Shown one piece after another: positions 1 to 57,393 of a stretch of 57,393 nt of DNA. The DNA comes from a virus (lineage: Duplodnaviria > Caudoviricetes), in the IMG/VR virus record IMGVR_UViG_3300045970_000131, positions 1 to 57,393 of that record; one strand, 5' to 3'. A program made the position numbers and the translations under genes. Below the pieces are notes generated by a model. That model did no database searches and was not told where the DNA came from. It was given only the letters and a program-made list of their open reading frames with translations. The number at the start of each line of letters is the position of its first letter. The stretch's first letter is position 1.

Positions 1-3000
1 CACCAGAATCAATCGGGTAAACTTTCCATTGCTCAATTGCACCCTTATCTGCACTCTCTGTTTCAATCTCAACCAATCCAGCGGCAATATCATCAAAGAC
101 TTGATTCATGTCCTTGCTATCTGATTTTATGAGTTGGAATAAGCGACGATTGCTAGCTAGCTTTTGCCATGCAGTGACTAAAATATTTACGTCATTGTTA
201 CGATTGAACGCTACATCCGATCCGTTATCACTTGATATTTGTTCCCCATTTGAGAAGGCTACTAGCGCCTTTCTTAGTGAATTTCTCAGCGCTTCAACAT
301 CTGAAATGTAGCGGGATGAACCTAAGTTTTGCAGCTTGGTGATAGCTTGATTTAAAAATCTGATGGTTGCATTCAAAAGACCTTTGAATTTATTACCGTC
401 TGCATTGGCCAGTTCTTGCAAGAACTTAGTATCACTCAATGCATCGCCAGTAAAGTCAGCTAATAGCTCACTTAATGCAGTTTCAGTCTTGTATGGCTTC
501 TCGCCATCTTTAAGCTTTTTGTTTAGATTTTCGTGATAAGCGCCGAAGTTTTGAATATATTGCTCGGCTTGCTCTTTGAACCATTCATGTAAGTCAGGGC
601 GTGTACGTTCTAATGAGTGATAAAGCTCATGCCCAGCAATAGTAGTTAGGTTTGTTTCGGCTCTTGCGTTGACGTAGATTGCACTGGGGCTGTTTCGCAG
701 CTGGACACCGGCAAAGATGTCGAAGTCTGGCTTGGTTGGGCTAACATATCGGAGCTCTTTTCCAAAGGCAGCTTTAATTTCTTGTTTGTATTCAAGAAGG
801 GTGTCAGGCACGTCAACCGATTCAAAACTATCACTCCAATTACTATCAAAATATTTAACCAATGCTTTGTTTAATACTTTAGCACCAAATTGGGATTTTG
901 ACTTTGTAAGCTGTAGTTTTGTACCGGTACCAAGCGAAAAGAACGGATCATTACGGCTGAAAAGTGGCAAGCCTTGCATGACTTGATCACGCATTTCAGG
1001 CGTGATAGTAATTGTATTTTGAACCAATCCAATTAAAGATGAATTTCCATCAGCATCTTCAAGTAGTTTTCCACTGTCAACATCTTGCAGCTCAACCTTT
1101 CCGCCACCAAGTTTTTTAAGCACGTCCTTGGCTACTTTAGGCACGATCTGATCATAGAATACGCGCATGCCTTCACCGCCTACCTTTAAATCATCTGCTT
1201 CAATGGTTCCAACTCTTGAATTTGTACTTGATTCAATGATTTTTTTGGCAACGTCTTTTCCTACAATATCCTCAAGTTTGTTTTCTGGAATGTTTGAAAA
1301 TCTTTCATCTTGCGCTTGCATTCCAACGCCATTAGCAATTGGGTTCAAATCATAAACATTTACCCCATTGTTAAGCCTTGCAGGGTTTGTGATAGTCCAT
1401 TTTATTTTATCAACTTGCTTACTCAAATCATATAAGTCAGCTGCTTGCTGGCCATTGATTAAAGCAACCTTATCGAAGCCGTTTTCAGCTGCATAGCGGA
1501 TCATGCGTTTCATGGCCAGCGATACCCAAGCATCAGTTTTGGTAACAAATGGTGCTGTTGGAATATCACCTATTCTTCTTGCCCCTTGCTCACTCAGCTG
1601 ATCAAACTCAACACCTTCTAATTCACTTAACGAGTTATTAAGCCATTTTTTGCGTAATTCATCATAACGGGCTTTAGCTTTAGGGTTTGTATTAAACCCT
1701 GTTTTCTTACCTGCTTGGCCCCAGTCCGATTGAATCTCGTTTATGAATAGCACCTTGTTGCCTTCTGCATCAGTGCGCTCGTCAAAGCGAACATGGGCTA
1801 AGATGTTTTTTTGTGTGAAGTGTCCAGAAGTATAATCATTGTTGCTATCTCGTGATTCTTTTGCTTCATATTGATTAATACTTAAAGGAAATCTATTCTG
1901 ATCGTCAGCAAATCTTTCAAACGCTTTAATTAGAATTTCATCATTAAGCTCAATTGCTCTTTGTTTCATTGTTTCAGTCGCTTGTAAGCTTTCATCAATA
2001 TACTGCTGAGCCTCTTCGCGTGTTTTAAATCCATCCTTTGGCTGATAACCAATAACTTGATAGGTCAATACTGGCTCGTGCCTTTCTGGTAAAGTCAGCA
2101 ACAACTCTTTGTAGTTATTGCCACCAGCCACGGTATAGTCTTTGTATTTTGTTGGCTTATACTTATTTTCACCCTTGGTAATGGTACTAACTGAGCCACC
2201 CATGTCGAGATTTACTTTATAGCCTAAGCTTTCCGCCTCTTCGACAAACTGATCCTCATCAATTTCACCATCATCTACCTGCATGACTAAATCTTGTAGG
2301 TCAGTAGGCATTGAATCAAAGTCTTTCGGGCTGTATGTTTCAGCATTGAATAATGCATCGCCTAAAATGGTTTCATCAACCTGTACGCCGTTATTATTGA
2401 GGTAGTCTAATACTTGCGCCTTAGTCACTTGGCCTTGTTGTAAATCGAGCCAATCACTAACGCCAGACCATTCAATTTCGTCCTGCTTCACGCCTTTTTG
2501 CGTAAGGTTTTTGATCAGGTTTTTCCATGCATCGGCAGGCGCTTTATTCAATTTAACGCCATCCACTGCACGTGTTAATGCACTGTAGAAAATAGGTGCA
2601 CGACTGAATAATGGATTGACATTTTCACTGGCAATGGTTGATAATTCTTTTACAGCTTCCGCGCCCAACTTACTGTCGGTAGAGTCAGCTCTAAGTTGCG
2701 TAGCTTTTTTGGTGTCATTCCCCGCCTTAATTGCATCGGATTGCTTTAATTTCCATCCAGTCAGTAACCACCCATTATTTCCCTTGTTCTTAACTAAAAT
2801 AGCCTCATAATCACCTTTGGCAACTACTATTTGCTGGTTATTGTTTATTTGGCTTTGTCTAATCACCTTACCACTTGCAATCGTATCAATAAGGTCTTTG
2901 GTTAGTAGCTTGTAAATATCATTCACAGACATGCCATCTTTAGCCATACGCTGTTTAATAATATGTTGAATACCTTTAAATTCATCACCCCATACAAAAT

Positions 3001-6000
3001 CAATCCAGCCAAGTTCATTGTGATACATGGCACGTTTTACATCAGCCTTAGTTATCAAGGCTTGATTCATGGATTTCTCACCATGCGTCACGTTAGCATC
3101 CACTGATTTCATAGGACTACGGCTAAATGAAACCTCTTCATCACCAGGGCGCTCAACATTCCGAAGCCTTACAAATATGCCAGCTGCTTTACCTTTTGGA
3201 TAATAGGCGAAGCGATCTGCCTCTCTTGCATTAGCAATTGATATTGATGGATCAGTAATAAATACGCCTTCGAGCTCTTTACCTTTATTGGTAGTCACTT
3301 TCTCAGCTGGCGCATTAGTGATGAGTTTGTCGCCTTTAATTTCAAAGGTAACATTCTGGCCAGATTTAGCAATCGCGCCAGACTCAGCGGCCTTAGCATC
3401 ACGCTCACGCGCCTCGATGTCCTTTTGTCGGGTAGATTCTGATTTTGTTTCTGCAGTAGCTGGCAATTGATCATCAGTTAATGGCTTGGCACGTGGCTTG
3501 AGCTCAAGGTCTTCAATGCGATCAAATAGGTCATTGATGTCGCTAATGCCTGTATAGTCTCGCTTTACTTGCTGAGGTGCATTTTCTGCGCTTGCTTTCT
3601 CGATGACAACAATGCGTGTATTAACTGCGGTACCTGCACGCTCAAATGTCACGCTTGGCAACTTAATGTCAGCGGCCAAATAGAGCCCGTCAGCTGGGCG
3701 GTAGGTTTCTTTACGCTTGCCAGTAGCCTTTACGTTAGTTACTGATGTAGGATTAACACCAACTTCGCCATTCGTGCCTTCAATCTTTACCAATAACATA
3801 TCATTGGATGCTCTAATCAGCTTGCCCGTAGCAGCCCAAGATAGACGTGACTCGATAGTGTCACCCTTATATAGCTTGCCTAATGTTGGATCATCAACTA
3901 ACGGCTTTACATCGCGCTCAGACTCTTCGTAAAACCACTTATCAAACTTCTGATCAGTAGCGCCCACTGGGATCAATGCAACAATGCGGCCACCGTCATT
4001 CAAGTGGCGTGCAGCTTTTGCTACGTGATCCACTGCAGTTCTACCAGCTGAACCAAAAGGCGGATTCATCACAATAGCATCGTACTTATTAATGATGTTT
4101 AGGTCTTCAAAGTCATGGCCAAGAATATTTCCGCCATACACCATGGCCAGTCTAGGGCGTAGCGCCATGCTTGGCTCAATAGCTGTTCTCTCTGAGTTTT
4201 CAGGCAGCCAGCGTGCAATCGCACCATGGCCAGCGCTTGGCTCTAATGATTTTTCACCAGCACGAATGTCAGCAAATTGCACCATCTTCAAGCCTACTGG
4301 TTCTGGTGTGGCGAAGTAGTCATTGCCTTCCTGTGCTTTTGTTTTGGCTGTTTTCTTTTGGGTACCGTAATAGAATGCTTTTGCACGATCAAACTCGGTC
4401 AAGGCTTCATTGGCTGCGCGATCACGCTCTTTACCGCCTTTGCCTTCGCCTTCCATGCCTGCACGATAATCGCCAGACTCTTCAAAGCCTGTAATAAATG
4501 CATCCTTGAGTGCGCGAGCTTGCTCACCCATGGCCAAGTTTTCAGCTGCACTAGCACGCTGCGCAATGGTTGTTGCAAAGGCCCAGCGCTCCCAGTTTGT
4601 ACCGGTATTTAAGTAACGGAAAATTGCATCAGTGACTTGGCCAGTACGATAAATACGGCCTTCTTGCTGGATTGATGTGGTTGGCTGTGTCGGCTGGCCA
4701 AGATTAAACAATACGCGCTGATGCTTGCCCGTAGTGTCGTGCAGGCTGATACCCTCTTTACCTGCAGCTGATTGCACCAAAATGACTTGCGCACCAGTAT
4801 TGTCATTGTTGAATTTAGCAACGTTCTCACGGCGCACCTTGCTTGGTACATCACCATTGAATAGCAGCACGTTAGGGAATTCAGTCTGGAAAGTAGTGAT
4901 CGGTGAAGATGATCTAAATTCTGGTGAATTTACAAGGTCGCTAAAATCAGATTTAAACTCATCAATTACCTGATTGACATCATCTGCATCGCTATCTGTC
5001 TGGCCTTCAGTTACATAGCCCATATTAAATGGGTTAAAGCCACCGCCCTTTTTATAGTCGTGGAATACCACAACCTTACGGCCAAGCGCCATATGCTCTT
5101 TAACGTGCGCAACTACTGCCTTGGCTTTGATTGCCTCTAGCAAATACCTGCGTGAAAGATAGTCAAACTTATCACTGAGTAACTTTTGCACTGCATAGAT
5201 AGCAGCTGTACGCTTCTTGTCTTCGGTGGCTTTTCTTTGCAGCTCGAACCATTGCAATGCCTGATCAATACGGGTACCGATGGCTGAGTCAATCAATACG
5301 AATTTACGGTCATAATCAGCATCGACATCGAGCATACGGCTAGATAAAACACCGTTCTTTTTCAGCCAAGTATTGAATTGGCGCTGCATTAGGCCGCGAT
5401 CTACCTTAGCATCTGGCTCAGTCAATTTGTTATAGCGCATTCTGTAACCAAAATGCTGCATCATGAATCGGTCTAGGTTACTGCCTGAATTGTAGCCACG
5501 GCCAGCGGTACCACTTGAGCCATCATTTGCTTGGCCCTCGTTGTAGTCGAATAGATAGCCGTTCGCCCAGTCAACCGTTTTTTCATAAGCGAATGGTGTT
5601 GCAGATAGAAACAATGTGCGAGTACGTGCTGCCCCTTGTGATTCTTTAACCTGTGCGCGAACCTTCTCATTGGTTTCACGATTTAAGGCAATAGCCTTGT
5701 CTAGCTCATCAGTAAGCTTGTCATTCAAAGCATCGTTATCAGCTGCTTGTTTATCAGTGAGTGATTGGCTTTTACCAAGTTCAATCGTTTCTTCAAGCTG
5801 TTCTTGAATTAATTTTAGCTTAGCAATGTCATCACGATAGAGCATTTCATGACGTGTGGCCATGCCTTGTGGGTGATTAGTAATAGCACGCAATGTCTTT
5901 AATGCATTGGTGTTGGTACCGTTCTTATCCATGGCAAGATAGTGGGCCTCATCATGTACGATTAAATCCCAGTTACGATCTGCCAGTGTTTTATTGCTGC

Positions 6001-9000
6001 CCATGTTGGCATAGGTAGTGATGGTGATGCCACTGCCTGCGTCAGTAGTTGAATCTAGGCGATTGATTTTTAGGCCAAGCAACTTGCCTGTGTTTTGCCA
6101 GTCTTCAATGATCTTATCGTTAGGCGCTACAATCAGGGTATTTTCTTTGCCAGCATTGGCAAAGCGCTTAATAACGCCTAAGCCGGTGAAGGTCTTACCG
6201 GTACCGGTACCGTTAGTAAACAACATGCCGTAGCCTTCTGGCTGGCTAAATCGTTCCTCAGTTTTGAATACATCTTCTTGCTGGCCAGCTTTTAGAATTG
6301 GTAATGTAGCGCGAACATTTTCTAGGGAATGCTCTTGTTTTACCTTGTCGGCCTTGATTTGCTCAATTTTGCTTATTGTTGGGAATAATCCGCCTTGAGC
6401 AAGCTCGTCAATTGCTGTTGCTGCGTTTGGTTCAATGGGCGCTCCTGTGATGCCACTATCACCGCCTCGCTGATCGACACTATTTCCAGCAGTGCCGACT
6501 TCCACTGTGGGTGATCCTGTGTAAACTTCGATATTGCTACGTTCTCTAGCAGTAGGGGTTTCAAATCCAAGTAACTCTCCGCTACTTGGTGATCCACTTT
6601 CTTGATCAGACTCTTGTATGCTTGATTCTCGTACTCGGCCATTTGATCCTGATTCATTTTGAATGCTTGTTTTGCCCAGTCTGTTTGCAGGCGCTGCGTT
6701 TTTGCTATCTGGTTCCAGATTGGTGCTGCTACGCTCGTTAGTGACATTTTTGCTATCCTTTAATTCATCAAGTGACTCAACACTGACTACATCACGTTTT
6801 TTACTGGCCTTATCGCCATACTTGCCAGCCATGCCAATATAGCTGCCTTGCAAGTGATCAATGCTCACGCTATCCGCTACATCATCGCCAATTTTAGCGC
6901 GGATTGTATCAAGCACAAACTTAGCTGCAGCTTTAAACTCATGATACCCAAGTCTGAATGCTGCATCAAACAGGCGTGTTAATACTTGGATTAGCTTTTG
7001 CTCTTGCTCTGGCGTGATGTTGCTGCGAAAGCCTCTGCCAAAAATTTCACCCAAATCACCAAGCGCATCATCAAGGTCAGATTTAGCCTTTTTAGTAGCT
7101 TCATCATTTTTTGGTGGCTCTGTCTCTTCTGGTGCAGGATCAGACAACAAATCACCCTGCCCTGCATATTGAGCATCAATCTGCTTTTCTACTGCTTTCT
7201 GTGTCTCTTCTTGGGTTTTAGCTTGGGGGGAAAGTTCAAAGCCTGCCGCTGCTAATTCTTGGCGCTGTTTACGCTCGGCTTCAATCTTAGCGGCACGCTC
7301 GGCCTTTAGTTGCTCGATTTTTTGCTTGGCTGTTTTTTTAGTAGCTTCAATGCCTGAGTTAATCTCAGCATTTGTTTGGCCAACTAAATCAAGTGTGGGT
7401 GCTACTTCTTGTCTGGGTGATTCGCGGTTTTCTGTTTGCTCAGAATTTTCTGCGCTTCCTGAATCTGCTGCTCGCTCAACGGCTGCTTGTCCAGAAGCAT
7501 TGTTCTCAGCATTCCCGCTACTATTGGGTTGTTGTTGCCCTTGTTCGGATTTCTTTGCATTCTTTATTTCCTCAAAAAGTTGCTTTCTGCTTTTTACTGG
7601 CACTTCACCAAACATAGCGCCTTGAAGTTTGTTAGTATCAGCTAGTTCAGATTGTTTTACAACAAAATCAGTCCAGCTTTTAAACGCTTCGGCAAGTTTG
7701 TTTTTAGCACGCATATTTGCAGCAAAAAACTCAGCAATCGCAACGGCTTCATCGCTAGTTAAAGCATCAACATTGGCCAAGTATTCACCAATAGGCTTAC
7801 CACTGCGCTTTGCATTGATAATGATACCAGCGGCCTCAACTGCTGCGCCGCGTATATCCATATCGTCTTTACCCTCAAGCTTAATCATTAAGGGTGCAGC
7901 CACGCCAAGTGCATTGATCACGTTCTTGGCTTCCTCATCGGTAGCCTCAGAATAAAGCCTTACCAGCTCATCACTGCCATATGCCTTATAAAATATGGCC
8001 GCATGTATGCGATCAATTGCTTGCCTGCTTATCTGGCCATTGCTGGATAACCCTGTTTTCTCGGTATCTGGTAATGATGCGATCCAGCGCTTAATGGATT
8101 CAACTGACAAATCACCTGATTCATCATGCTCAATGCTATCAATGTTTAAGCGCTGCGCATCATTCTTTGCCTGCTCAACTGGGCTTAGCTGTGCTGTTTG
8201 TGAAATATTGCTCAAATCACCAATGTCATTGGTAATGTGCTGCTCATTCATGACTCGAACTAATACTGGGTTTTTGAATGACTCTACTGCAGCTGGATCA
8301 ATCCCGACTTTGTTTGCCTTCTGGATTAGATCGGCTTTGTATTGTTCGGCTGTCTGTTGCTCATACCCGCGTGCAATACCAGCGGCACGTCCATTGCCAG
8401 CGATTACACGCATTTTACCGCCGGCCCCTGATTGATAGCTGTCATTGGGTATTCCACTAACATTGTGTGAAGTGATCAAGTCATTTGCATCAACTACTGC
8501 ATACTGGGTATCGTAGCGATTGCCTTTACCATCTACCGTCACATCTTTGTCGCCTACTGCAATATTACTTGGCAGCGCATTATCATTTCCGAAAACAATC
8601 GGCGCACCTGTTTGCATGTCGTTGCTAATGCCAGCGCGTAAGAAGTCAGGATTAGAAGCAATAGCCTGCATTTGGTTGATGCTAGATGGACTGGATCGGT
8701 CACGGTTTTGGAGTATTAAGCCATCTTGTGAAACCACATCTTGCGCACGTGACATTTCATCAGGCGGCAATAGATCAATCAGTGAATTGTCAGATCGAGT
8801 TGATACAGTAGTATCGCTTGTATCATTGGCTCGTAAATCATCGGCACTGGTTCCCATGGTTGGTTGGTTGCCAGAAAATTCAGCTCCTGTGCTTCCCGCT
8901 GCGGGATTAATAACAGGTCTACCATTTCCTGTAGGTTCTTGGCTAGCGGCTGATTCATTTTGACTGCTGACATTGGGTTGCTCCTGTGTGCTAACGTCTG

Positions 9001-10600
9001 GAAAAGCAAGATCAGGATATTTAGCCTGCATTTCTGCAATAATCTCAGCATCCATATCATTATTTGATGCGGTGTCGCCAATTGGTGACGGATTAGTTTC
9101 GTTAAAGTTAGCAATCTCTTCATGCTTTTGTTCTGCCCTTGCCCGTGCCTCTTCATCATGCGGGGCCATGATCATATCAACTAAGTCTGAACGGCTTAAT
9201 TTAGGCTTTTTGGCTGTGCTTGGTGCTAAGCCTTCAGTATTCCATTTGTTGATCGCATCATCTTTTGCTTTATCTGCTGTCTCGTATGGGTCTGGTAGAT
9301 AGGTTTCATTTTTGAATTTTCTGGCCACATGGCTTGCGCCTGATACGGCACCAGCCATAATCACAGTAGCAATCAAGGTATCAAATGCAGCTTGTGGGCG
9401 CTCGCGTAGGTAGTCACCCCATGTTTTATCTGGATTAGCTATCGCGGTATCGACTGCATCTTGTGAGAGTGTTGCCACCTCTTCGCCTGCTACTTCTTTT
9501 TTGAAGAAGTCTTTTAACAGGTCGAGTGTTTTAACCTTGCCGAATTTTTCAACCACGGCACTCATTGGCATAAACTCGGTAAGCACCTCTAAGCTGCCCT
9601 CGCCTAATGCGCCAATAGCAGCCTCTACGCCTGTTGCACCGCGCTCGCGGTACTTGGCATAAGCTTGTGCCTCAGTTTGCACCCCTGCTGCAGCTAAGGC
9701 GGGAATAGCGCTGCCCGTAGCAACACCAGCGGCCAATGCAGGTGCATTTTGCATAAAGCTTGAAAGGCCGCTATACGCTGAGTTAAATAACGGGCTATCA
9801 AACTGAGGGGTTGAGCGCTCGATGTCGCCCTGAATTTGTTGGTATTTGCGCTTAGCATCTGCCTTCATATCATCGCTGCCGATAATATCAGCGAATTGGC
9901 TTCTAACGCCTTGACGTGCAGCGTCCATGCCTTGGCTAGTAGCCTGACCTAATCCTATTACTGCATTGCCAAATGTACCATCTGCAGCCTGATTGTCATT
10001 GCCTATGCTGTCTGGATTGCTATCCATTGCACTTGGCTCAAAGTTGCGTGCCATCGTAGACAAATCACTAAGGCCCAATGACGGTTTACCACGTACATTT
10101 TTAGGCCGTTTAAGCTGCTCACTGATCAAGGCTTTTGCAGCTGGATCATTGGTGCGTGACATTGCATCATTCAATGTCTGTGTTTCTGCATCTGAAATAG
10201 GCGTACTAATCTCGGTACCTAAAGCACCATGCGCAGCGGTTACATTGCTATAGTCTTTTAAACCGGCTTCATCAATGCGACTTTGCTCATCAGCGGTAGC
10301 TTGATGAACACCAGGCTTATAAGAAACTTGGCTTGCATCAGGTAAGCCAAACACTTTATCCAGATTAGATAGGCTATAAATGCCTAAGCCATCATCCTTG
10401 ATAGGTTCAGCTGCTTGAACAGGTTTATCAGCCTTGGCTTGATTACTGGCTTTGATTTCAGCAACTTTGTCCTGCTTAACTTTCTTTGATAATTCAGCAT
10501 GGCCATCGCTAAAAACACTTGCGCGGCCTGCACTACCTTTTACATTGGCATATGGATCAGCAATATACCCATTCTCATCTAACCCTTTTGCATCATCCAT
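1..10600 (-). CDS. Giant polyvalent DarB-like ejection protein, N-terminal 3,533 codons (open off the left edge; continues at the right end of the window)
   Basis: ATG at 10600 overlaps the upstream TAA (TAATG). Motifs checked in the same frame: ddrB-like ParB (LQNRDRS ~8710, IAGNGR), SF2/SNF2 helicase (GTGTGKT, DEAH 5953, LSATPF, QQEGRIYR), N6-adenine MTase (EPSAGHG, NPPF 4066), BECR nuclease (WG..GIQHI...WLLTGW ~2990), EIQSDW domain (1738), zincin HELYH (631). No stop seen; absent from the ORF track because it lacks a stop in the window. Confidence 0.93.
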   Translation of the reverse strand, partial: MDDAKGLDENGYIADPYANVKGSAGRASVFSDGHAELSKKVKQDKVAEIKASNQAKADKPVQAAEPIKDDGLGIYSLSNLDKVFGLPDASQVSYKPGVHQATADEQSRIDEAGLKDYSNVTAAHGALGTEISTPISDAETQTLNDAMSRTNDPAAKALISEQLKRPKNVRGKPSLGLSDLSTMARNFEPSAMDSNPDSIGNDNQAADGTFGNAVIGLGQATSQGMDAARQGVRSQFADIIGSDDMKADAKRKYQQIQGDIERSTPQFDSPLFNSAYSGLSSFMQNAPALAAGVATGSAIPALAAAGVQTEAQAYAKYRERGATGVEAAIGALGEGSLEVLTEFMPMSAVVEKFGKVKTLDLLKDFFKKEVAGEEVATLSQDAVDTAIANPDKTWGDYLRERPQAAFDTLIATVIMAGAVSGASHVARKFKNETYLPDPYETADKAKDDAINKWNTEGLAPSTAKKPKLSRSDLVDMIMAPHDEEARARAEQKHEEIANFNETNPSPIGDTASNNDMDAEIIAEMQAKYPDLAFPDVSTQEQPNVSSQNESAASQEPTGNGRPVINPAAGSTGAEFSGNQPTMGTSADDLRANDTSDTTVSTRSDNSLIDLLPPDEMSRAQDVVSQDGLILQNRDRSSPSSINQMQAIASNPDFLRAGISNDMQTGAPIVFGNDNALPSNIAVGDKDVTVDGKGNRYDTQYAVVDANDLITSHNVSGIPNDSYQSGAGGKMRVIAGNGRAAGIARGYEQQTAEQYKADLIQKANKVGIDPAAVESFKNPVLVRVMNEQHITNDIGDLSNISQTAQLSPVEQAKNDAQRLNIDSIEHDESGDLSVESIKRWIASLPDTEKTGLSSNGQISRQAIDRIHAAIFYKAYGSDELVRLYSEATDEEAKNVINALGVAAPLMIKLEGKDDMDIRGAAVEAAGIIINAKRSGKPIGEYLANVDALTSDEAVAIAEFFAANMRAKNKLAEAFKSWTDFVVKQSELADTNKLQGAMFGEVPVKSRKQLFEEIKNAKKSEQGQQQPNSSGNAENNASGQAAVERAADSGSAENSEQTENRESPRQEVAPTLDLVGQTNAEINSGIEATKKTAKQKIEQLKAERAAKIEAERKQRQELAAAGFELSPQAKTQEETQKAVEKQIDAQYAGQGDLLSDPAPEETEPPKNDEATKKAKSDLDDALGDLGEIFGRGFRSNITPEQEQKLIQVLTRLFDAAFRLGYHEFKAAAKFVLDTIRAKIGDDVADSVSIDHLQGSYIGMAGKYGDKASKKRDVVSVESLDELKDSKNVTNERSSTNLEPDSKNAAPANRLGKTSIQNESGSNGRVRESSIQESDQESGSPSSGELLGFETPTARERSNIEVYTGSPTVEVGTAGNSVDQRGGDSGITGAPIEPNAATAIDELAQGGLFPTISKIEQIKADKVKQEHSLENVRATLPILKAGQQEDVFKTEERFSQPEGYGMLFTNGTGTGKTFTGLGVIKRFANAGKENTLIVAPNDKIIEDWQNTGKLLGLKINRLDSTTDAGSGITITTYANMGSNKTLADRNWDLIVHDEAHYLAMDKNGTNTNALKTLRAITNHPQGMATRHEMLYRDDIAKLKLIQEQLEETIELGKSQSLTDKQAADNDALNDKLTDELDKAIALNRETNEKVRAQVKESQGAARTRTLFLSATPFAYEKTVDWANGYLFDYNEGQANDGSSGTAGRGYNSGSNLDRFMMQHFGYRMRYNKLTEPDAKVDRGLMQRQFNTWLKKNGVLSSRMLDVDADYDRKFVLIDSAIGTRIDQALQWFELQRKATEDKKRTAAIYAVQKLLSDKFDYLSRRYLLEAIKAKAVVAHVKEHMALGRKVVVFHDYKKGGGFNPFNMGYVTEGQTDSDADDVNQVIDEFKSDFSDLVNSPEFRSSSPITTFQTEFPNVLLFNGDVPSKVRRENVAKFNNDNTGAQVILVQSAAGKEGISLHDTTGKHQRVLFNLGQPTQPTTSIQQEGRIYRTGQVTDAIFRYLNTGTNWERWAFATTIAQRASAAENLAMGEQARALKDAFITGFEESGDYRAGMEGEGKGGKERDRAANEALTEFDRAKAFYYGTQKKTAKTKAQEGNDYFATPEPVGLKMVQFADIRAGEKSLEPSAGHGAIARWLPENSERTAIEPSMALRPRLAMVYGGNILGHDFEDLNIINKYDAIVMNPPFGSAGRTAVDHVAKAARHLNDGGRIVALIPVGATDQKFDKWFYEESERDVKPLVDDPTLGKLYKGDTIESRLSWAATGKLIRASNDMLLVKIEGTNGEVGVNPTSVTNVKATGKRKETYRPADGLYLAADIKLPSVTFERAGTAVNTRIVVIEKASAENAPQQVKRDYTGISDINDLFDRIEDLELKPRAKPLTDDQLPATAETKSESTRQKDIEARERDAKAAESGAIAKSGQNVTFEIKGDKLITNAPAEKVTTNKGKELEGVFITDPSISIANAREADRFAYYPKGKAAGIFVRLRNVERPGDEEVSFSRSPMKSVDANVTHGEKSMNQALITKADVKRAMYHNELGWIDFVWGDEFKGIQHIIKQRMAKDGMSVNDIYKLLTKDLIDTIASGKVIRQSQINNNQQIVVAKGDYEAILVKNKGNNGWLLTGWKLKQSDAIKAGNDTKKATQLRADSTDSKLGAEAVKELSTIASENVNPLFSRAPIFYSALTRAVDGVKLNKAPADAWKNLIKNLTQKGVKQDEIEWSGVSDWLDLQQGQVTKAQVLDYLNNNGVQVDETILGDALFNAETYSPKDFDSMPTDLQDLVMQVDDGEIDEDQFVEEAESLGYKVNLDMGGSVSTITKGENKYKPTKYKDYTVAGGNNYKELLLTLPERHEPVLTYQVIGYQPKDGFKTREEAQQYIDESLQATETMKQRAIELNDEILIKAFERFADDQNRFPLSINQYEAKESRDSNNDYTSGHFTQKNILAHVRFDERTDAEGNKVLFINEIQSDWGQAGKKTGFNTNPKAKARYDELRKKWLNNSLSELEGVEFDQLSEQGARRIGDIPTAPFVTKTDAWVSLAMKRMIRYAAENGFDKVALINGQQAADLYDLSKQVDKIKWTITNPARLNNGVNVYDLNPIANGVGMQAQDERFSNIPENKLEDIVGKDVAKKIIESSTNSRVGTIEADDLKVGGEGMRVFYDQIVPKVAKDVLKKLGGGKVELQDVDSGKLLEDADGNSSLIGLVQNTITITPEMRDQVMQGLPLFSRNDPFFSLGTGTKLQLTKSKSQFGAKVLNKALVKYFDSNWSDSFESVDVPDTLLEYKQEIKAAFGKELRYVSPTKPDFDIFAGVQLRNSPSAIYVNARAETNLTTIAGHELYHSLERTRPDLHEWFKEQAEQYIQNFGAYHENLNKKLKDGEKPYKTETALSELLADFTGDALSDTKFLQELANADGNKFKGLLNATIRFLNQAITKLQNLGSSRYISDVEALRNSLRKALVAFSNGEQISSDNGSDVAFNRNNDVNILVTAWQKLASNRRLFQLIKSDSKDMNQVFDDIAAGLVEIETESADKGAIEQWKVYPIDSG
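2616..2645 (+). promoter_or_regulatory. Putative sigma70 promoter antisense to the giant gene
   Basis: TTGACA (2616-2621), 18 nt, GATAAT (2640-2645), pointing toward the BECR nuclease coding region. Confidence 0.5.
2652..2745 (+). ncRNA. Candidate structured small RNA embedded downstream of the BECR nuclease domain
   Basis: Closing stem TCCG(2658)/CGGA(2737); stem CAACTTA(2666)/TAAGTTG(2692); inner hairpin AGAG-TCAG-CTCT; begins just after the promoter. Confidence 0.35.
6373..6747 (-). CDS. Overprinted (+1 frame) 124-aa protein nested in the giant gene linker before the helicase
   Basis: AAGGA SD 8 nt before ATG; amphipathic helical composition, whereas the host frame here is a disordered S/G/E linker. 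Confidence 0.7.
   Translation of the reverse strand: MSLTSVAAPIWNQIAKTQRLQTDWAKQAFKMNQDQMAEYENQAYKSLIKKVDHQVAESYLDLKPLLLENVAISKFTQDHPQWKSALLEIVSISEAVIVASQERPLNQTQQQQLTSLLKADYSQQ
7402..7560 (-). CDS. Overprinted (+1 frame) 52-aa protein nested after the ParB-like domain
   Basis: TGAGGA SD 8 nt before ATG; MQRNPNKGNNNPIVAGMLRTMLLDKQPLSEQQIQEAQKILSKQKTANHPDKK; spans the linker. Confidence 0.5.
   Translation of the reverse strand: MQRNPNKGNNNPIVAGMLRTMLLDKQPLSEQQIQEAQKILSKQKTANHPDKK
8779..8973 (-). CDS. Overprinted (+1 frame) 64-aa protein nested before the ParB-like domain
   Basis: AGGAG SD 7 nt before ATG at 8973; MSAVKMNQPLAKNLQEMVDLLLIP...ILLYQLDLTIH; stop just before the ParB domain begins. 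Confidence 0.6.
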   Translation of the reverse strand: MSAVKMNQPLAKNLQEMVDLLLIPQREAQELNFLATNQPWEPVPMIYEPMIQAILLYQLDLTIH

Positions 10601-12243
10601 TATTTATCGCCTTTATTTACAGGTTTTAAGCCTTTACCATCCCATTTCACGAATGTACCGTTAGGTAATTCATAAGTTTTATCTACCTGCCTCACTTGTG
10701 GTGGTGGCAATGGTGTCTCTTTGTATTTTGGTAAGCCCTTGGTATAGCGCTCAAGATACGGGTCAGTGCCATAAATGCGCACATGCTGCGGGTCTGGCTG
10801 CATGGATAATTTGTATTGCTCAGCTAGGCGCGGATCAAATTTAGGGTTATCGGTGGCAGCTCCATAGCTGTCATAGATTTTAGGTTTAACTTTTTCACGA
10901 ATTTCATCAGGGGTTCCAGCGCTGGCAATGAATCTACGTGCACTGGCCACAGATACTGACTCTTGCTGCTCATTGGGTGGTAACTCTTTTCCCAAGCCAT
11001 CACCGCCGCCGCCATCGCCTTTGATTTCACTCTTGAATTTTGCAAATCCTTTTGGATCGCGCTGCCATTGCTCATACTCAGTAGGCGCACGCCCTTCACG
11101 GCCTGATGCCTTCCATTTTTTGTAGCCTTCAGGGTCTTTCTGGTAAAACTCAATTTCACTCAAAGATTTTGGCGCAGCTGGGTTGTTGGCCAACTGCTTA
11201 CCATCACCATCAACTAATACTTCGCCTTGATTAAGTGTTCTAGGCTTGGCCTTCTCTTCTTTTATTTTCAAATTAGATTCATTAGTTTGCTCGGCCAGTT
11301 TTTGCAGTGAAGCCATTTCAGCTTTCCAGCGTGCAGCTGGGTCTTGATATGAGTAAACCAATTGCTTGATTTGGTCTGGTGTAAATTGGCGTTGTGTTGA
11401 ATTTCCGGTACCGTCATCTAGTTCAATTGCATAACTACCATCTGGATTTTGCTTGTAGCCTTTAACTGTGCCACCATCGCCTATTGCATCGTTATAAATG
11501 TTAATGAAGCCATCTAGCTTGCCAGATACATCAAATTGACGTTGGGCCGTGGCCAGTCCATCCTTAAACAATTGTCCGCGCACCTCGAAGCCTTGCTTTT
11601 GCATACTTAATGCAGTATTAAAATCACCAAGTTCTAATGCCTTATCGCGTGCAGCATCAATGCCTGCAATAGTTCGCTTGGCAAATAGCGCCTGCTTATT
11701 CACTGGCGGTGCTACTTGTGCACCTTGTTGGCCAGCTTGCTGTGCTGGCTGCTGCACAGACTGATTTACCTGATTCACGGATGAGTTAGGATCAAAGGCT
11801 AATGGCTGGCTTTGTTGTGCTGGCTGCTGTGTAGGCTGCTGCGCTGTTGGGTCTAAGCTTGCAAGGCCACCTTCAGCATATTTACGCACCATGCCGCCAT
11901 CTTTAAACACTTGCGCTTGCAATCTGTCTTTATTTTGAAAGTCAGCATTTTGTTCTGGCTGCGTATTTATATCGCCTGCATTCGCTGTCGGCTGGGTATT
12001 TTCATCTAATGTAGGCAATGAATTAATAGTTTGTAGTCCTGCCATGTCAAATGCATTTTGTGGCTTGGTAATACTTGCATTTTGGCTTGGCATGTTCTGA
12101 TCATCAAATGCCTTGATTGCATTTTTAGAAGCTTCAAGGATTTGATCCTCTTTACTCTTTTTCTCACGCTTGTCCTTAATTGCTGAACCAAATTCATAAC
12201 CTTTGGCTAGACCGCCTGCAAATCCGCCTAAATTAATTCCCAT
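10600..12243 (-). CDS. DNA ejection / internal virion protein 2
   Basis: N-terminal GGFAGGLAKG amphipathic segment, Q-rich, translationally coupled between ejection protein 1 and the giant gene. Confidence 0.7.
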   Translation of the reverse strand: MGINLGGFAGGLAKGYEFGSAIKDKREKKSKEDQILEASKNAIKAFDDQNMPSQNASITKPQNAFDMAGLQTINSLPTLDENTQPTANAGDINTQPEQNADFQNKDRLQAQVFKDGGMVRKYAEGGLASLDPTAQQPTQQPAQQSQPLAFDPNSSVNQVNQSVQQPAQQAGQQGAQVAPPVNKQALFAKRTIAGIDAARDKALELGDFNTALSMQKQGFEVRGQLFKDGLATAQRQFDVSGKLDGFINIYNDAIGDGGTVKGYKQNPDGSYAIELDDGTGNSTQRQFTPDQIKQLVYSYQDPAARWKAEMASLQKLAEQTNESNLKIKEEKAKPRTLNQGEVLVDGDGKQLANNPAAPKSLSEIEFYQKDPEGYKKWKASGREGRAPTEYEQWQRDPKGFAKFKSEIKGDGGGGDGLGKELPPNEQQESVSVASARRFIASAGTPDEIREKVKPKIYDSYGAATDNPKFDPRLAEQYKLSMQPDPQHVRIYGTDPYLERYTKGLPKYKETPLPPPQVRQVDKTYELPNGTFVKWDGKGLKPVNKGDK

Positions 12244-44298: not shown

Positions 44299-44340
44299 AT
44301 AGGTACTCCTATTGACACATATTATAGGATAACCTATTAT
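44299..44340 (+). promoter_or_regulatory. pL promoter with OL operators
   Basis: TTGACA(44312)-17-TATTAT(44335); ATAGGTACTCCTAT (44299), ATAGGATAACCTAT (44324). Confidence 0.85.
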
Positions 44341-53505: not shown

Positions 53506-55991
53506 GGGGTTAAACGTCTGGCAATCTGATCCTGCTGCTGGCGTAGATTGCTAATCTTTGCCTGCTTCTCACTGGCCGACATATCCGCTAATTCAATTTT
53601 CTTGATATTGTCGTTAATCCGCTTAGTGAGTTTTTTCACAGTTTCAACATTCCGATACACCTTGAGCTCACTATCATGGCTTTGACGGTAAGACTCGGCT
53701 TCGGCACCCTTGCCCTGCTTCTGTAAATGCTTCCATGTGCTGTATGCCTTTTCGAGCTCGGCAGCCTGGTCATACATTTGAGTAACGTAGCGGCTTTGAT
53801 CACTCGGCAGCTTGGCCACCATTCCGCCTGTAGCTGCTTTGTATAGGTCAAGCGCTGGCTTTGTGGGCTCATTCATTGTTGAACGTACCAATATATCAGA
53901 ACCAGACACGACAAACGATCCGATCCAGCCAAAATAGGACTGTACCAAGTGATCAATTTGTATCGGTGATAGGAAAGCATTGCCAGTCACCGCATTGCCT
54001 GCAGTGCTAACGCCGCGTGCAATTAGGCTAGTATCCTGGTTAAAGCGATAATCAGGGTCTAAGCGCTCCATGCCCATGCCCTCAATCGGGCGGCCCGTGA
54101 ATGAATCTTTATTGGCATAAATATCAATAATAGGTTTCACCAGCTGCGGTGTTGGGTTCATAGACAATTGGTTCATGACAAGGTTTGCTATGACCTTTTT
54201 GAAGCGATCACCAGTCATTTCTTTATCAAAGACCAGCTCAGCACCGCGCTCAGCAATGGTTGCAATAGCACCGATTTCAAACGGCTTAGGAATACGGAAA
54301 GCAGTACCACCAATTTTAAACCACCAGTAGTTGTCACGATCCCAGTCTTCGCGCTTTTTCCAGTCATCGTCATCACCATAGGCAGCAAGTAGGGCCAGTG
54401 ATGCCACGGTAACGGCACCAAGTACGATTGCAAAGCGTGCCTTGTCTTCATTGGCTGATTTTCCAAGCTTATACAGACCTTGTAAGCGTGCATTCATGAA
54501 TGGAACCACTTGGGTTAAGAATCGAACAGAAGTCCATGCACCATGCATAGAGAAGTCCATCAGGTCACGGGCCATCAATGATGCAGTCGCGTGATCCATG
54601 CCCTTAGCTTTAAGCTGATGATAGAGCGCCATGCGGTTGATTTCTTCTCCACGGTTGCCAAGCTCATTGTAGGCAGCGATAGAAGGATCAATGTATTTGT
54701 CGTACATTTTACGAACTTTGCTTTCATCATTAAGGATTGATTCATCACTGGCACCCTGCTTGATAAGCTGTCTTACCCGTGATGCGTCATTGCCTTCCAG
54801 CATGGTACCGAACCTGATCAGGCCACCGCCAGCTAGTGCAGATATGTACTCTTGCACTGGGTTCTTTTTATTGGTGAGTGCAATGCCCTCTTTAATGTTT
54901 TTAACTGGGTTGTAACTTAACTCTGCAGTAGCAATAGCCTGGACTGAATCTCGGATCAAGTTGCGCACTTTAAAGAATGGTGATGCAGTAACACCCACAG
55001 TTAAAAGATTCTTACTCATGGATAGTATGCCCATTGCACCATTACGCATACCGGCATATTCAAGGCTTGAAATTGCCGTGAGTATGTACGGATCATCTAC
55101 CTTGTATTCAACCTTGTTGCCGCCTTCCATGGCCCAAACGGTTTTTTTATCACCCATAACGGCCTTGTGTGCCAAGCCTAGTTGCTCGGCTGTCTTGAGC
55201 GTGGCCAATGCTGCGCGATTCTTTGCTGATGCATCAATCAAGTGAGCCCAATTCATTAAGGTATTTGAAAGCAGATCATTAAGCTTTTGATCACCGCCTT
55301 TTAGCTTTTTGAATGCCTCTTGGCGAATTACACCACCCTTGATGTTTAGGCCACGCACGCCGCCTTCTTGGTCTTCGGCCATACGGTAGAATGGCACATA
55401 AAAATCATGCTCCCAGTGTTTACGGCTTGCAGGATCAATCAGGCCAGACTGTTCAGCGATGTCCAGCACGTTACGGCTAAAGCCATTAAATTTAGCAAGT
55501 GAGTCTAGGTAAATGAGTGGCCGTTCGCGTGTGACATTACCATTAGCCAGCGTGTAGTCAAAGTCTGTTTGGCCATCGGTTAGTGACTTGAATGCAGTGA
55601 TGTCATCCTTAGTAAATAGATTCTCTTTACCTTCACGGGCTAGGCGCTCGGCACGGTTGCCAGCGATCCAGCGTAAAAAGTCGGTAGACTCCTTGCCCAG
55701 CGGGTAAAACACTTTATCAAGCACGCCGCCTGTATTGTCTGCATCAGTAACATCATTGCTTATTTTAAGCTTGCCATAATGCATGAAGGCTTCAAACGCG
55801 CCTGTTGCACCTTTTGACAATCGAAGCAATGTGTATGCATGAGAGTCGATGTCTTTCACTGGTGCAAACTGATCAAAAATACCTTGGGCCGCTTTTTTAC
55901 CTGCGTCTTGCCAGATTTCTTGAAGTGTCTCTTTTACAGTGTTTTTAGACAACACTGAGCCAGTGCGCTCTAGTGCTGCCTTTTGCTCTGG
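53499..55991 (-). CDS. Giant polyvalent protein, C-terminal part with LPD38-like domain (after the frameshift)
   Basis: YVPFYR, RNLIRD, DF...G...VPF.NARLQG, WDRDNYWW...RIPKPFEIG; frame extends upstream of the track start to PEQKAALERTGSV. Confidence 0.85.
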   Translation of the reverse strand, partial: PEQKAALERTGSVLSKNTVKETLQEIWQDAGKKAAQGIFDQFAPVKDIDSHAYTLLRLSKGATGAFEAFMHYGKLKISNDVTDADNTGGVLDKVFYPLGKESTDFLRWIAGNRAERLAREGKENLFTKDDITAFKSLTDGQTDFDYTLANGNVTRERPLIYLDSLAKFNGFSRNVLDIAEQSGLIDPASRKHWEHDFYVPFYRMAEDQEGGVRGLNIKGGVIRQEAFKKLKGGDQKLNDLLSNTLMNWAHLIDASAKNRAALATLKTAEQLGLAHKAVMGDKKTVWAMEGGNKVEYKVDDPYILTAISSLEYAGMRNGAMGILSMSKNLLTVGVTASPFFKVRNLIRDSVQAIATAELSYNPVKNIKEGIALTNKKNPVQEYISALAGGGLIRFGTMLEGNDASRVRQLIKQGASDESILNDESKVRKMYDKYIDPSIAAYNELGNRGEEINRMALYHQLKAKGMDHATASLMARDLMDFSMHGAWTSVRFLTQVVPFMNARLQGLYKLGKSANEDKARFAIVLGAVTVASLALLAAYGDDDDWKKREDWDRDNYWWFKIGGTAFRIPKPFEIGAIATIAERGAELVFDKEMTGDRFKKVIANLVMNQLSMNPTPQLVKPIIDIYANKDSFTGRPIEGMGMERLDPDYRFNQDTSLIARGVSTAGNAVTGNAFLSPIQIDHLVQSYFGWIGSFVVSGSDILVRSTMNEPTKPALDLYKAATGGMVAKLPSDQSRYVTQMYDQAAELEKAYSTWKHLQKQGKGAEAESYRQSHDSELKVYRNVETVKKLTKRINDNIKKIELADMSASEKQAKISNLRQQQDQIARRLTPQ

Positions 55992-57393
55992 CTGTATTGT
56001 CTACCTGAATTGCCAACGATGGATTTACGACTAAATAATATACTGTCATTGTTAGAATCGAATGAGCCAGTGTTGCCGATAGCGGATGGTATTTCTTCTT
56101 TTGTTACTTTTCCACCTGTAACCAACACTCGATAATCACCTTCATCAATGCCTAAACTTTTTAAGTTTTCAATCAAAGCCTTTTGATAATCTTCTTTAAA
56201 ATTGTTTATTTCAATCGGTTTTGTAATTGGTTTTACTGTATTCAAGTCAAGTAAAGGCTCTCCGTCTGAACCGTTGCCAACTTTTTCCCCTTCTACAATA
56301 TAGGCATATTCTCCACCATCTACGGGTTGAGGTATTTTTGCAACACTCAATCCACCCTCGCTCATACCTGTAGCCCAATTCTTCGAGCCACGGTGTGTGC
56401 CATTAATTAAATGCTCATAATCATCTTTTGATGTAGATACTCTAACAAATTGGTTTTCTTTTAAAGGGCTAAAGTATTCTTGCAATAACAGTTCGGCTTC
56501 TCTCTGCAAATCAGATATTGATTTAAACTTTAATTGCGTTAAAAGCTGAACATTGCCGTTATCGTCAATATAAATCGACTTATCTCCACTGCTTTCAATG
56601 GCATGGATAGGAACGCTTTTTAGATATTTCCCATTGTCTGTAATGTTTAATCTCATGTTTGAAAGATTAGCATTATTTACCGCATTTTGAATAGGCTTGC
56701 CGTTGCTGTTTAGGGTGGGGCGTTTTTTACTGTCAATGGTGATGGTGTCGGGCAGGGTTCGGCTATAAGCAATAGCCGTGGCTTGGTTTAACCCGTTATC
56801 CCGCCGCGCGAGGCGGATAATGCCGCCCAAAAAGCGTCCCCGCTCTCCCTGTGCTGTTGCTCGTAAGCTGGTAGATGTGATAACCGCTCTTTTAAGCGTT
56901 GCGCTGCCAGCGTCAACATTACGCGCTCCGTAGGTCTTGGCAAGTTTTGCAAATTCTGCATCTGTAAACTCTGTGCCATCGGCTCTATTTTTGAATGTTC
57001 CATCGTTAGTATCGTAGAATAAATCATCAATTTTTGCAACGCCTATTGCATTATTAGATTTATAAGTGACCTCAAAGTCAGTACCTTCGTTTTCAGTGAC
57101 AAAAACACCGTTCTTAATGGCGTTGTATGACGCATTAAGCATCTGGTCAAGGTTGTATTCGGTGTCGCCCTCTTTCCATTTAAACTCAAGCTCGCCCAAC
57201 ATATTAGGATGTGGTTGAATATGGTCAGTTGTTCCAAATTTAAGCGTGGTTGAAATCATATTTTCTAGGCGGCGCATCATTCCATCAGGGCTGATACCTT
57301 GCCGATCACCAGTAAATACCTTGCCGTTGTTATACGCCCAATTAGAAACGGCAGCATAAATAGCAGAACCGCCCTTGTATCTGCCCCAATTAG
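55970..57393 (-). CDS. Giant polyvalent protein, middle part (GNAT-like plus ART-like); open off the right edge
   Basis: Frame open to 57391 (NWGRYKGGSAIYAAVSNWAYNNGKVFTGD); R..S.NWATG..EGGLSV...GSDGEPLL domain; frame compatible with position 1. Confidence 0.8.
   Translation of the reverse strand, partial: NWGRYKGGSAIYAAVSNWAYNNGKVFTGDRQGISPDGMMRRLENMISTTLKFGTTDHIQPHPNMLGELEFKWKEGDTEYNLDQMLNASYNAIKNGVFVTENEGTDFEVTYKSNNAIGVAKIDDLFYDTNDGTFKNRADGTEFTDAEFAKLAKTYGARNVDAGSATLKRAVITSTSLRATAQGERGRFLGGIIRLARRDNGLNQATAIAYSRTLPDTITIDSKKRPTLNSNGKPIQNAVNNANLSNMRLNITDNGKYLKSVPIHAIESSGDKSIYIDDNGNVQLLTQLKFKSISDLQREAELLLQEYFSPLKENQFVRVSTSKDDYEHLINGTHRGSKNWATGMSEGGLSVAKIPQPVDGGEYAYIVEGEKVGNGSDGEPLLDLNTVKPITKPIEINNFKEDYQKALIENLKSLGIDEGDYRVLVTGGKVTKEEIPSAIGNTGSFDSNNDSILFSRKSIVGNSGRQYSQSKRQH
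56788..56919 (-). CDS. Possible fourth overprinted (+1 frame) peptide, 43 aa
   Basis: GGAG SD 6 nt before ATG at 56919; MLTLAAQRLKERLSHLPAYEQQHRESGDAFWAALSASRGGITG. Confidence 0.35.
   Translation of the reverse strand: MLTLAAQRLKERLSHLPAYEQQHRESGDAFWAALSASRGGITG

Follow-up and report, generated by a model that had tools for sequence, protein, structure and literature searches.

Polyvalent proteins of phages carry predicted ribonucleases (RNases) into the host, and in the portion of their survey drawn on here Iyer, Burroughs, Anand, de Souza and Aravind (2017; PMC5512222) predict that the PBECR domains are RNases of this virion-delivered kind. We analysed a 57,393-nucleotide (nt) stretch of DNA from a virus of the Caudoviricetes (IMG/VR record IMGVR_UViG_3300045970_000131, positions 1 to 57,393; hereafter the window; G+C 43%), in which one giant open reading frame (ORF), 2..10600(-), stays open for 3533 amino acids (aa) and continues past the window edge. 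An earlier, sequence-only reading of this ORF had assigned part of it to a BECR-type RNase, and a Pfam match to PBECR1 above the curated cut-off (Table 1) bears this out. PBECR1 is the only nuclease family that Pfam calls in the ORF; the other domains called are ddrB-ParB, parts of a ResIII/SNF2 helicase and a methylase-like stretch, and the neighbouring genes encode portal, major head, internal virion and tail-fibre proteins. Because several effector domains share one polypeptide and virion genes adjoin it, the product is a polyvalent protein in the sense of Iyer et al., and it resembles the cases in the consulted portion of PMC5512222 in its domain, its ParB-like/SNF2 helicase/methylase context, its virion module and its predicted injected RNase. 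Neither that portion nor the consulted part of a 2026 BECR preprint mentions an RNA or an immunity factor for PBECR1, and our literature search found no RNA linked to this domain. Here we describe a candidate gene for a folded antisense RNA which stands beside the RNase domain in dozens of distant phages and is, judging from its sequence, probably a built-in regulator or antidote.

Relatives were collected by searching with the domain and its tail, which gave 6 genome loci, 15 and 23 viral-contig loci and 36 metagenome loci, with whole genomes adding more; at the DNA level no match was found among phage records, and none in Escherichia coli genomes with a relative's sequence. The closest relative, at 55% protein identity, is a Pseudomethylobacillus prophage (L001). 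Minimum free energy (MFE) folds of 105-nt antisense segments show the same architecture in 22 of 22 lineages, a closing helix, P1, around two hairpins, P2 and P3. This architecture was evaluated on A6, a MAFFT alignment of 32 distinct 110-nt antisense segments that was not fitted to any structure. Pairing in the three helices reaches 78.7% of 959 cells against 54.7% after shuffling, and the covariation score is 0.629 against 0.209 when shuffled and 0.09-0.21 when the partners are slid; none of 500 shuffles attained either observed value. Changes on both sides were found for 25 of the 30 pairs (7/8 in P1, 10/10 in P3), and the paired share is 85% for P1, 83% for P2 and 68% for P3. From the alignment alone RNAalifold predicted 19 pairs belonging to P1, P2 and the P3 core, 17 of them with compensatory changes; on a 78-nt ungapped alignment that covers P2 only it predicted none, P2 being visible in the pair counts and the longer alignment. 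The P2 hairpin is found in every lineage, with arms that differ in sequence and a constant register, and the P1 columns read CCTG/CAGG in L001. Seven of ten folded copies are markedly more stable than their shuffles, with z-scores of -6.15 (L001), -5.34 (L102), -4.75 (L022), -3.69 (L059), -3.08 (L044), -2.67 (L079) and -2.49 (L077).

The sequence-only reading had described three nested stems behind the domain and proposed covariation across homologous linkers as a check, which the A6 counts and RNAalifold now supply in the form of compensatory changes. All three stems are present in the window, where TCCG pairs with CGGA and AGAG/CTCT lies within the P2 loop; the first (P1) and CAACTTA/TAAGTTG (P2) are conserved and covary, whereas AGAG/CTCT has no counterpart in L001, and the conserved helix P3 had been overlooked. 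A covariance model built without the window and L001 (R3) has its sole window match at the element, and scans with the other models likewise give a single copy in the window. We regard it as very probable, from this pattern of sequence change, that the (+) strand at about 2616-2745 belongs to a conserved structured-RNA family of three helices and approximately 92-95 nt. The element runs antisense to the final codons of PBECR1 and to the linker that follows them. The family is absent from Rfam 15, in which no entry overlaps the element at E up to 1, either at window positions 2000-3600 or in 12 related loci.

Synonymous sites in the tail are fixed among copies ranging from 35 to 62% G+C, with arginine encoded by CGT in 15/15 cases, proline by CCT in 11/11, glycine by GGA in 14/16 and threonine by ACG in 11/17, in contrast to an invariant glycine within the domain that uses four codons. 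Such fixation implies a constraint on the nucleic acid itself. Several copies are also untranslated. In the Acinetobacter phage vB_AbaM_ABMM1 the PBECR1 ORF stops right behind the domain and the element comes after it; in an A. baumannii plasmid record the element, with nearly perfect helices, fills an annotated intergenic gap of 199 nt, preceded by TTGAAA-17-TATTAT (10/12) and with U7 behind P1; and in L079, where PBECR1 is a stand-alone gene of 165 aa, it lies between the stop codon and the terminator of a convergent gene. Model R1 recovered these Acinetobacter and L079 copies without having been trained on them. Since untranslated copies keep the element, the sequences indicate that the conserved unit is the nucleic acid, and the protein linker is apparently shaped mainly by an RNA on the opposite strand, its amino acids covarying so that the helices persist. 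A programmed frameshift site was considered and rejected, there being no in-frame slippery heptamer ahead of P2 in the window and none common to the relatives inspected.

With regard to strand, the helix cells of 29 sequences comprise 634 Watson-Crick pairs, 62 antisense G-U pairs, 26 A-C combinations (G-U on the sense strand) and 147 others (binomial p 1.6e-4 for G-U over A-C), and the ratio of G-U to A-C is similar whether sequences have a promoter-like site (41:19) or lack it (21:7). The MFE of the antisense strand lies below that of the sense strand in 20 of 24 clusters (Wilcoxon p 1.3e-4). As cells are not independent events, we take the preference for the antisense strand to be moderate and no proof.

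The antisense promoter-like sequence TTGACA-18-GATAAT, which the sequence-only reading saw as directed into the stems, is present as stated and conserved in relatives. It scores 11/12, the highest of 15 promoter-like sites within 1-10700, and for the exact pattern the expectation is 0.03 occurrences; taken alone, it is suggestive only. L001 has the identical two hexamers at the same spacing and homologous place with a different spacer sequence, and its -10 hexamer requires leucine to be encoded by TTA, which accounts for 4% of leucine codons in that ORF. Under synonymous recoding, a site of at least 11/12 would arise with probability 0.006 in the window and 0.001 in L001. In 10 of 18 representative lineages the antisense strand of the tail carries a site scoring 9/12 or better, and in nine of the 10 it lies 43-47 codons past the domain end. 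Recoding with each ORF's own codon usage leads to an expectation of 1.96 tails with a site out of 17, against 9 observed; the corresponding controls gave 2 against 2.25 expected on the sense strand and 40 against 51.6 expected in 304 other gene windows. A census covered 40 distinct full-length copies. In 24 of them a site scoring 9/12 or better precedes the RNA within 53 nt, its -10 lying 5-11 nt ahead of the model start, compared to 2 of 160 same-strand control windows, making the copies ~48-fold richer; in 9 copies the site scores 10/12 or better. TTGnnn is retained in most lineages, and TAnAnT is fixed 12-19 nt ahead of the RNA core in most. We consider it likely on these grounds that the RNA is transcribed from a sigma-70-type promoter of its own (2616-2645) and starts near 2652.

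Two further observations concern promoter-like sites. In the subfamily of L002 and L067 none adjoins the RNA, and sites of 10/12 and 9/12 lie on its strand 156 and 150 nt upstream, which suggests a longer leader. Across the whole window, sigma-70-like sites scoring 10/12 or better are fewer than shuffling predicts (9 against 19.0 +/- 4.4), and the sole other 11/12 site, TTGACA-17-TATTAT at 44312(+), sits between divergent genes, where it is a possible early promoter.

The element is closely tied to PBECR1. Among 151 Pasteurellaceae genomes, 11 have a PF18809 match and all 11 have the RNA, on the opposite strand and 27-133 nt beyond the domain. No RNA model match was obtained in 10 loci that have the next domain only, without PBECR1, and every copy found, with the exception of L096, lies directly behind PBECR1. 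A class-wide sample of 151 genomes yielded only the query's own genome and one weak match (G982/L101, 271-358(-), 27.6 bits), which we set aside as a probable false positive at the contig end of an unrelated genome, with no PBECR1-like ORF adjoining. The RNA unit and its overlapped peptide are tandemly duplicated in several lineages (L022, L031-L033, L043, L053, L066, L075, L091 and L092), the units being ~96-156 nt apart, and in L033 each unit has a separate promoter-like site. Sequence motifs are kept across hosts of GC 0.38 to 0.73. The exception, L096 (1449-2368(-)), is a twelfth Pasteurellaceae genome in which an RNA and its 10/12 promoter, both intact, stand behind an LPD3 domain. The LPD3 protein has its N-terminal 47 residues in common with a PBECR1 protein, pointing to a domain swap of LPD3 for PBECR1, and the swap boundaries coincide with the edges of the element.

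A number of results weigh against an antisense RNA that serves PBECR1. The z-score of the window copy is -0.95 on the (+) strand, -0.33 on the (-) strand and -1.07 for 2652-2747, a segment that 29 of 200 shuffles fold as well; it forms 4/8 in-register pairs of P1, 9/12 of P2 and 6/10 of P3, and is a weakly folded member of the family. Perfect inverted repeats of 7 bp or longer occur 98 times in the window. Promoter-like sites scoring 11/12 or better number 2 where shuffling predicts 1.47, and 78 of 100 shuffles contain at least one. Promoter and fold are accordingly unremarkable in the window alone, and the support for them comes from the relatives. Even there, two other folded copies have weak z-scores (L051 -1.73, L033 -0.89), the share of cells paired is only somewhat higher as antisense than as sense RNA (80.0% against 75.9%, a moderate G-U bias), and 16 of the 40 copies have no site of at least 9/12 adjoining the RNA, several of these negatives carrying TTGnnn-17-TACAnT with a -35 that matches at 3/6 positions only. 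A conserved terminator is absent, a run of at least four T standing behind P1 in only 4/40 copies. Most lineages translate the stretch, always in the same frame, and the L096 tail is kept as a separate ORF of 59 aa joined by an ATGA overlap, so the far end of the tail may also serve as a peptide alongside the RNA. As covariance models also capture coding homology, finding the RNA together with PBECR1 in part says no more than that the tail is a piece of the module. Finally, the copy beside LPD3 does not fit an antidote bound strictly to PBECR1, unless it is an orphan.

The mechanism we prefer, tentatively and at somewhat less than an even chance, is that the RNA is an antidote or immunity factor of PBECR1. 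Its own promoter would uncouple its expression from the late operon encoding the protein and so allow it, for example, in a lysogen. A compact folded RNA could then bind PBECR1 as a decoy or inhibitor in the phage-producing cell, and the same RNA could protect a lysogen facing related incoming phages. At packaging and injection of the polyvalent protein the RNA would stay behind, leaving the RNase active in the new host only. Binding is favoured by the closed fold, by junction and loop letters that stay conserved in untranslated copies too, by an independent promoter, which would suit lysogens, and by the copy beside LPD3, which looks like an orphan immunity gene. Stated in full, a folded antisense RNA of ~95 nt, placed in the toxin's linker or past its stop codon, would bind BECR-fold phage RNases and survive domain swaps as an orphan immunity RNA, a proposal we hold a shade more tentatively still. 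For the PBECR domains the element would be a concrete candidate immunity factor or regulator. If the proposal is true, the colicin-like RNase superfamily would gain its first RNA immunity partner, and the RNA would be a gene whose whole length is overprinted on the strand opposite a coding sequence. The 40 distinct copies are enough for R-scape analysis and for mutant design.

A rather unlikely alternative is a countertranscript, of the kind of lambda OOP or type I antitoxins, acting only by pairing with the mRNA it overlaps and limiting leaky PBECR1 expression, for example in a prophage. Pairing would trigger cleavage or decay, with the helices providing stability and loop-loop contact. The convergent promoter-like site, the overlap with the 3' end of the domain or gene, the coverage of the stop codon and 3' untranslated region in stand-alone genes and the foldability of both strands all agree with such a role. 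Perfect pairing in cis, on the other hand, would need neither a closing helix that buries the ends nor conserved junction and loop letters in untranslated copies, an RNA inside a 10.6-kb ORF, away from its ends, would be oddly placed to control it, and the copy beside LPD3 stays intact.

Less likely again is a structured RNA with a function that does not involve PBECR1, such as a trans-acting decoy against host defence or a regulator, travelling with the module. Its own promoter-like site, the conservation of motifs over a wide range of host GC, the retention beside LPD3 after the swap and the tandem units in several lineages would all suit a self-contained gene. Such an RNA would not be expected to stand otherwise always directly behind PBECR1, as in the 11/11 Pasteurellaceae, nor to lack other copies in the window and any copy in the 10 loci without PBECR1, and no target can be named for it.

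About as improbable, or slightly more so, is a function of the structure in the sense mRNA or the DNA, as a processing or pause site or a module-exchange joint, with the promoter-like sites incidental. Most pairs can form on the sense strand, copies without a clear promoter make up 16 of 40, and in L096 the swap took place at the element's edges. Against this, the G-U count leans towards the antisense strand (62:26), and does so in rows lacking a promoter too (21:7), and promoter-like sites exceed both the control windows and the synonymous-recoding expectation. A general inter-domain linker or recombination joint was rejected as the principal explanation, given the single copy in the window and none in the 10 loci having the next domain only. 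Very improbable, finally, is a by-product in which a conserved linker peptide with A+T-rich codons mimics promoter and hairpin, for although the tail peptide is conserved and neither fold nor promoter beats chance in the window alone, lineage-specific helix arms differ and yet remain complementary, synonymous sites are fixed and untranslated copies keep the element.

The features of the locus are collected in Table 1. The T6 run behind P2 is a possible early stop, which would give an RNA of ~58 nt. Within PBECR1 the His of GIQHI is invariant in 17/17 aligned relatives, and a C-terminal position is T, S or N (WLLTGW, WVLSGW, WLMNAF); a profile search of PDB sequences with the domain returned a single chance-level match (E 0.81). 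Motifs related to LFSR close the tail in relatives (LFSR, LFQR, RYSQ) and form the C-terminus of the stand-alone proteins. The giant protein has two copies of PLFSR followed by (I/P)F(Y/F)S, one at the tail end and one from residue 3213 (~nt 953-964), both at module boundaries; the motif may be a processing or docking site. HELYH, a zincin-like HExxH motif at about residue 3330 in the C-terminal part of the ORF, has no Pfam call; it may belong to the processing metallopeptidase (MPTase) that polyvalent proteins are expected to contain. A second ORF on the same strand, 55970..57391(-), enters at the window end with its 5' side open; should the record be circularly permuted, the two ORFs are one gene of ~4000 aa. 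ARAGORN found no tRNA and no tmRNA in the window.

Table 1. Positions in the window of the candidate RNA gene, its promoter-like hexamers and the adjoining protein features.
Feature	Position	Strand	Remarks
LFSR peptide motif, tail end / module junction	2600..2611	(-)	second copy from residue 3213
-35-like hexamer TTGACA	2616..2621	(+)	antisense of codons N-V-N
-10-like hexamer GATAAT	2640..2645	(+)	antisense of codons E-L-S, Leu = TTA
Full RNA-family-model match	2646..2755	(+)	R3: 36.6 bits, E 3.7e-9; R2: 63.2 bits
Predicted transcription start, A	2652	(+)	7 nt past -10; inferred from spacing
P1 5' strand	2654..2661	(+)	TCCG 2658-2661 pairs in register; AGC 2654-2656 pairs in MFE fold
P2 hairpin	2662..2703	(+)	arms CAACTTA 2666-2672 and TAAGTTG 2692-2698; conserved base GCGCC...GCGTAG
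P3 hairpin	2704..2732	(+)	core GGTG 2711-2714 with CGCC 2723-2726; loop antisense of G-N-D
T6 run behind P2	2705..2710	(+)	sequence; without conservation in relatives
P1 3' strand	2737..2745	(+)	CGGA 2737-2740, GCT 2743-2745; preceded by conserved CAUC 2734-2737
PBECR1 RNase domain	2741..3031	(-)	residues 2524-2620; Pfam PF18809, E 7.9e-13, 49.3 bits against cut-off 27.6

Among known systems, the type III toxin-antitoxin pairs (ToxIN, CptIN, TenpIN) are similar in combining an endoribonuclease with an adjoining folded RNA (PMC5772629 and PMC8860590, in the portions consulted). Their RNA is a direct-repeat array located upstream on the same strand, co-transcribed with and processed by a ToxN-type toxin, whereas here it is antisense, lies 3' of a BECR-fold domain behind its own promoter-like site and consists of one unit, or two in some relatives. 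By its testable features, the kind of toxin and the repeat array, the locus is not a member of the type III family. Of the analogy with type III drawn in the sequence-only reading, the logic survives and the particulars do not, the RNA being antisense, 3' of the domain and in single copy and the RNase not of the ToxN kind; nothing was found of the nested peptides it envisaged for neighbouring domains. Type I pairs with a 3'-overlapping antisense RNA, such as txpA/RatA and bsrG/SR4 from Bacillus prophages, resemble the convergent arrangement seen here. Toxins of the txpA/RatA and bsrG/SR4 type are small hydrophobic peptides, unlike the partner in the window, an RNase domain of ~100 aa in a virion-borne protein of more than 3533 aa, and by testable features the locus is not a type I family member either. 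OOP RNA of phage lambda, a countertranscript of the cII 3' end, has a defined short size, ends at an intrinsic terminator and depends on RNase III. Its expression suppresses CII activities, according to the portion of PMC5869508 consulted. Like OOP, the element in the window would be a short phage RNA with its own, here predicted, promoter, convergent to and overlapping the 3' end of a gene that needs restraint; it differs from OOP in having no conserved terminator, a closed three-helix fold with conserved junction letters, a position inside a continuing ORF in most lineages and, as its partner, an RNase domain.

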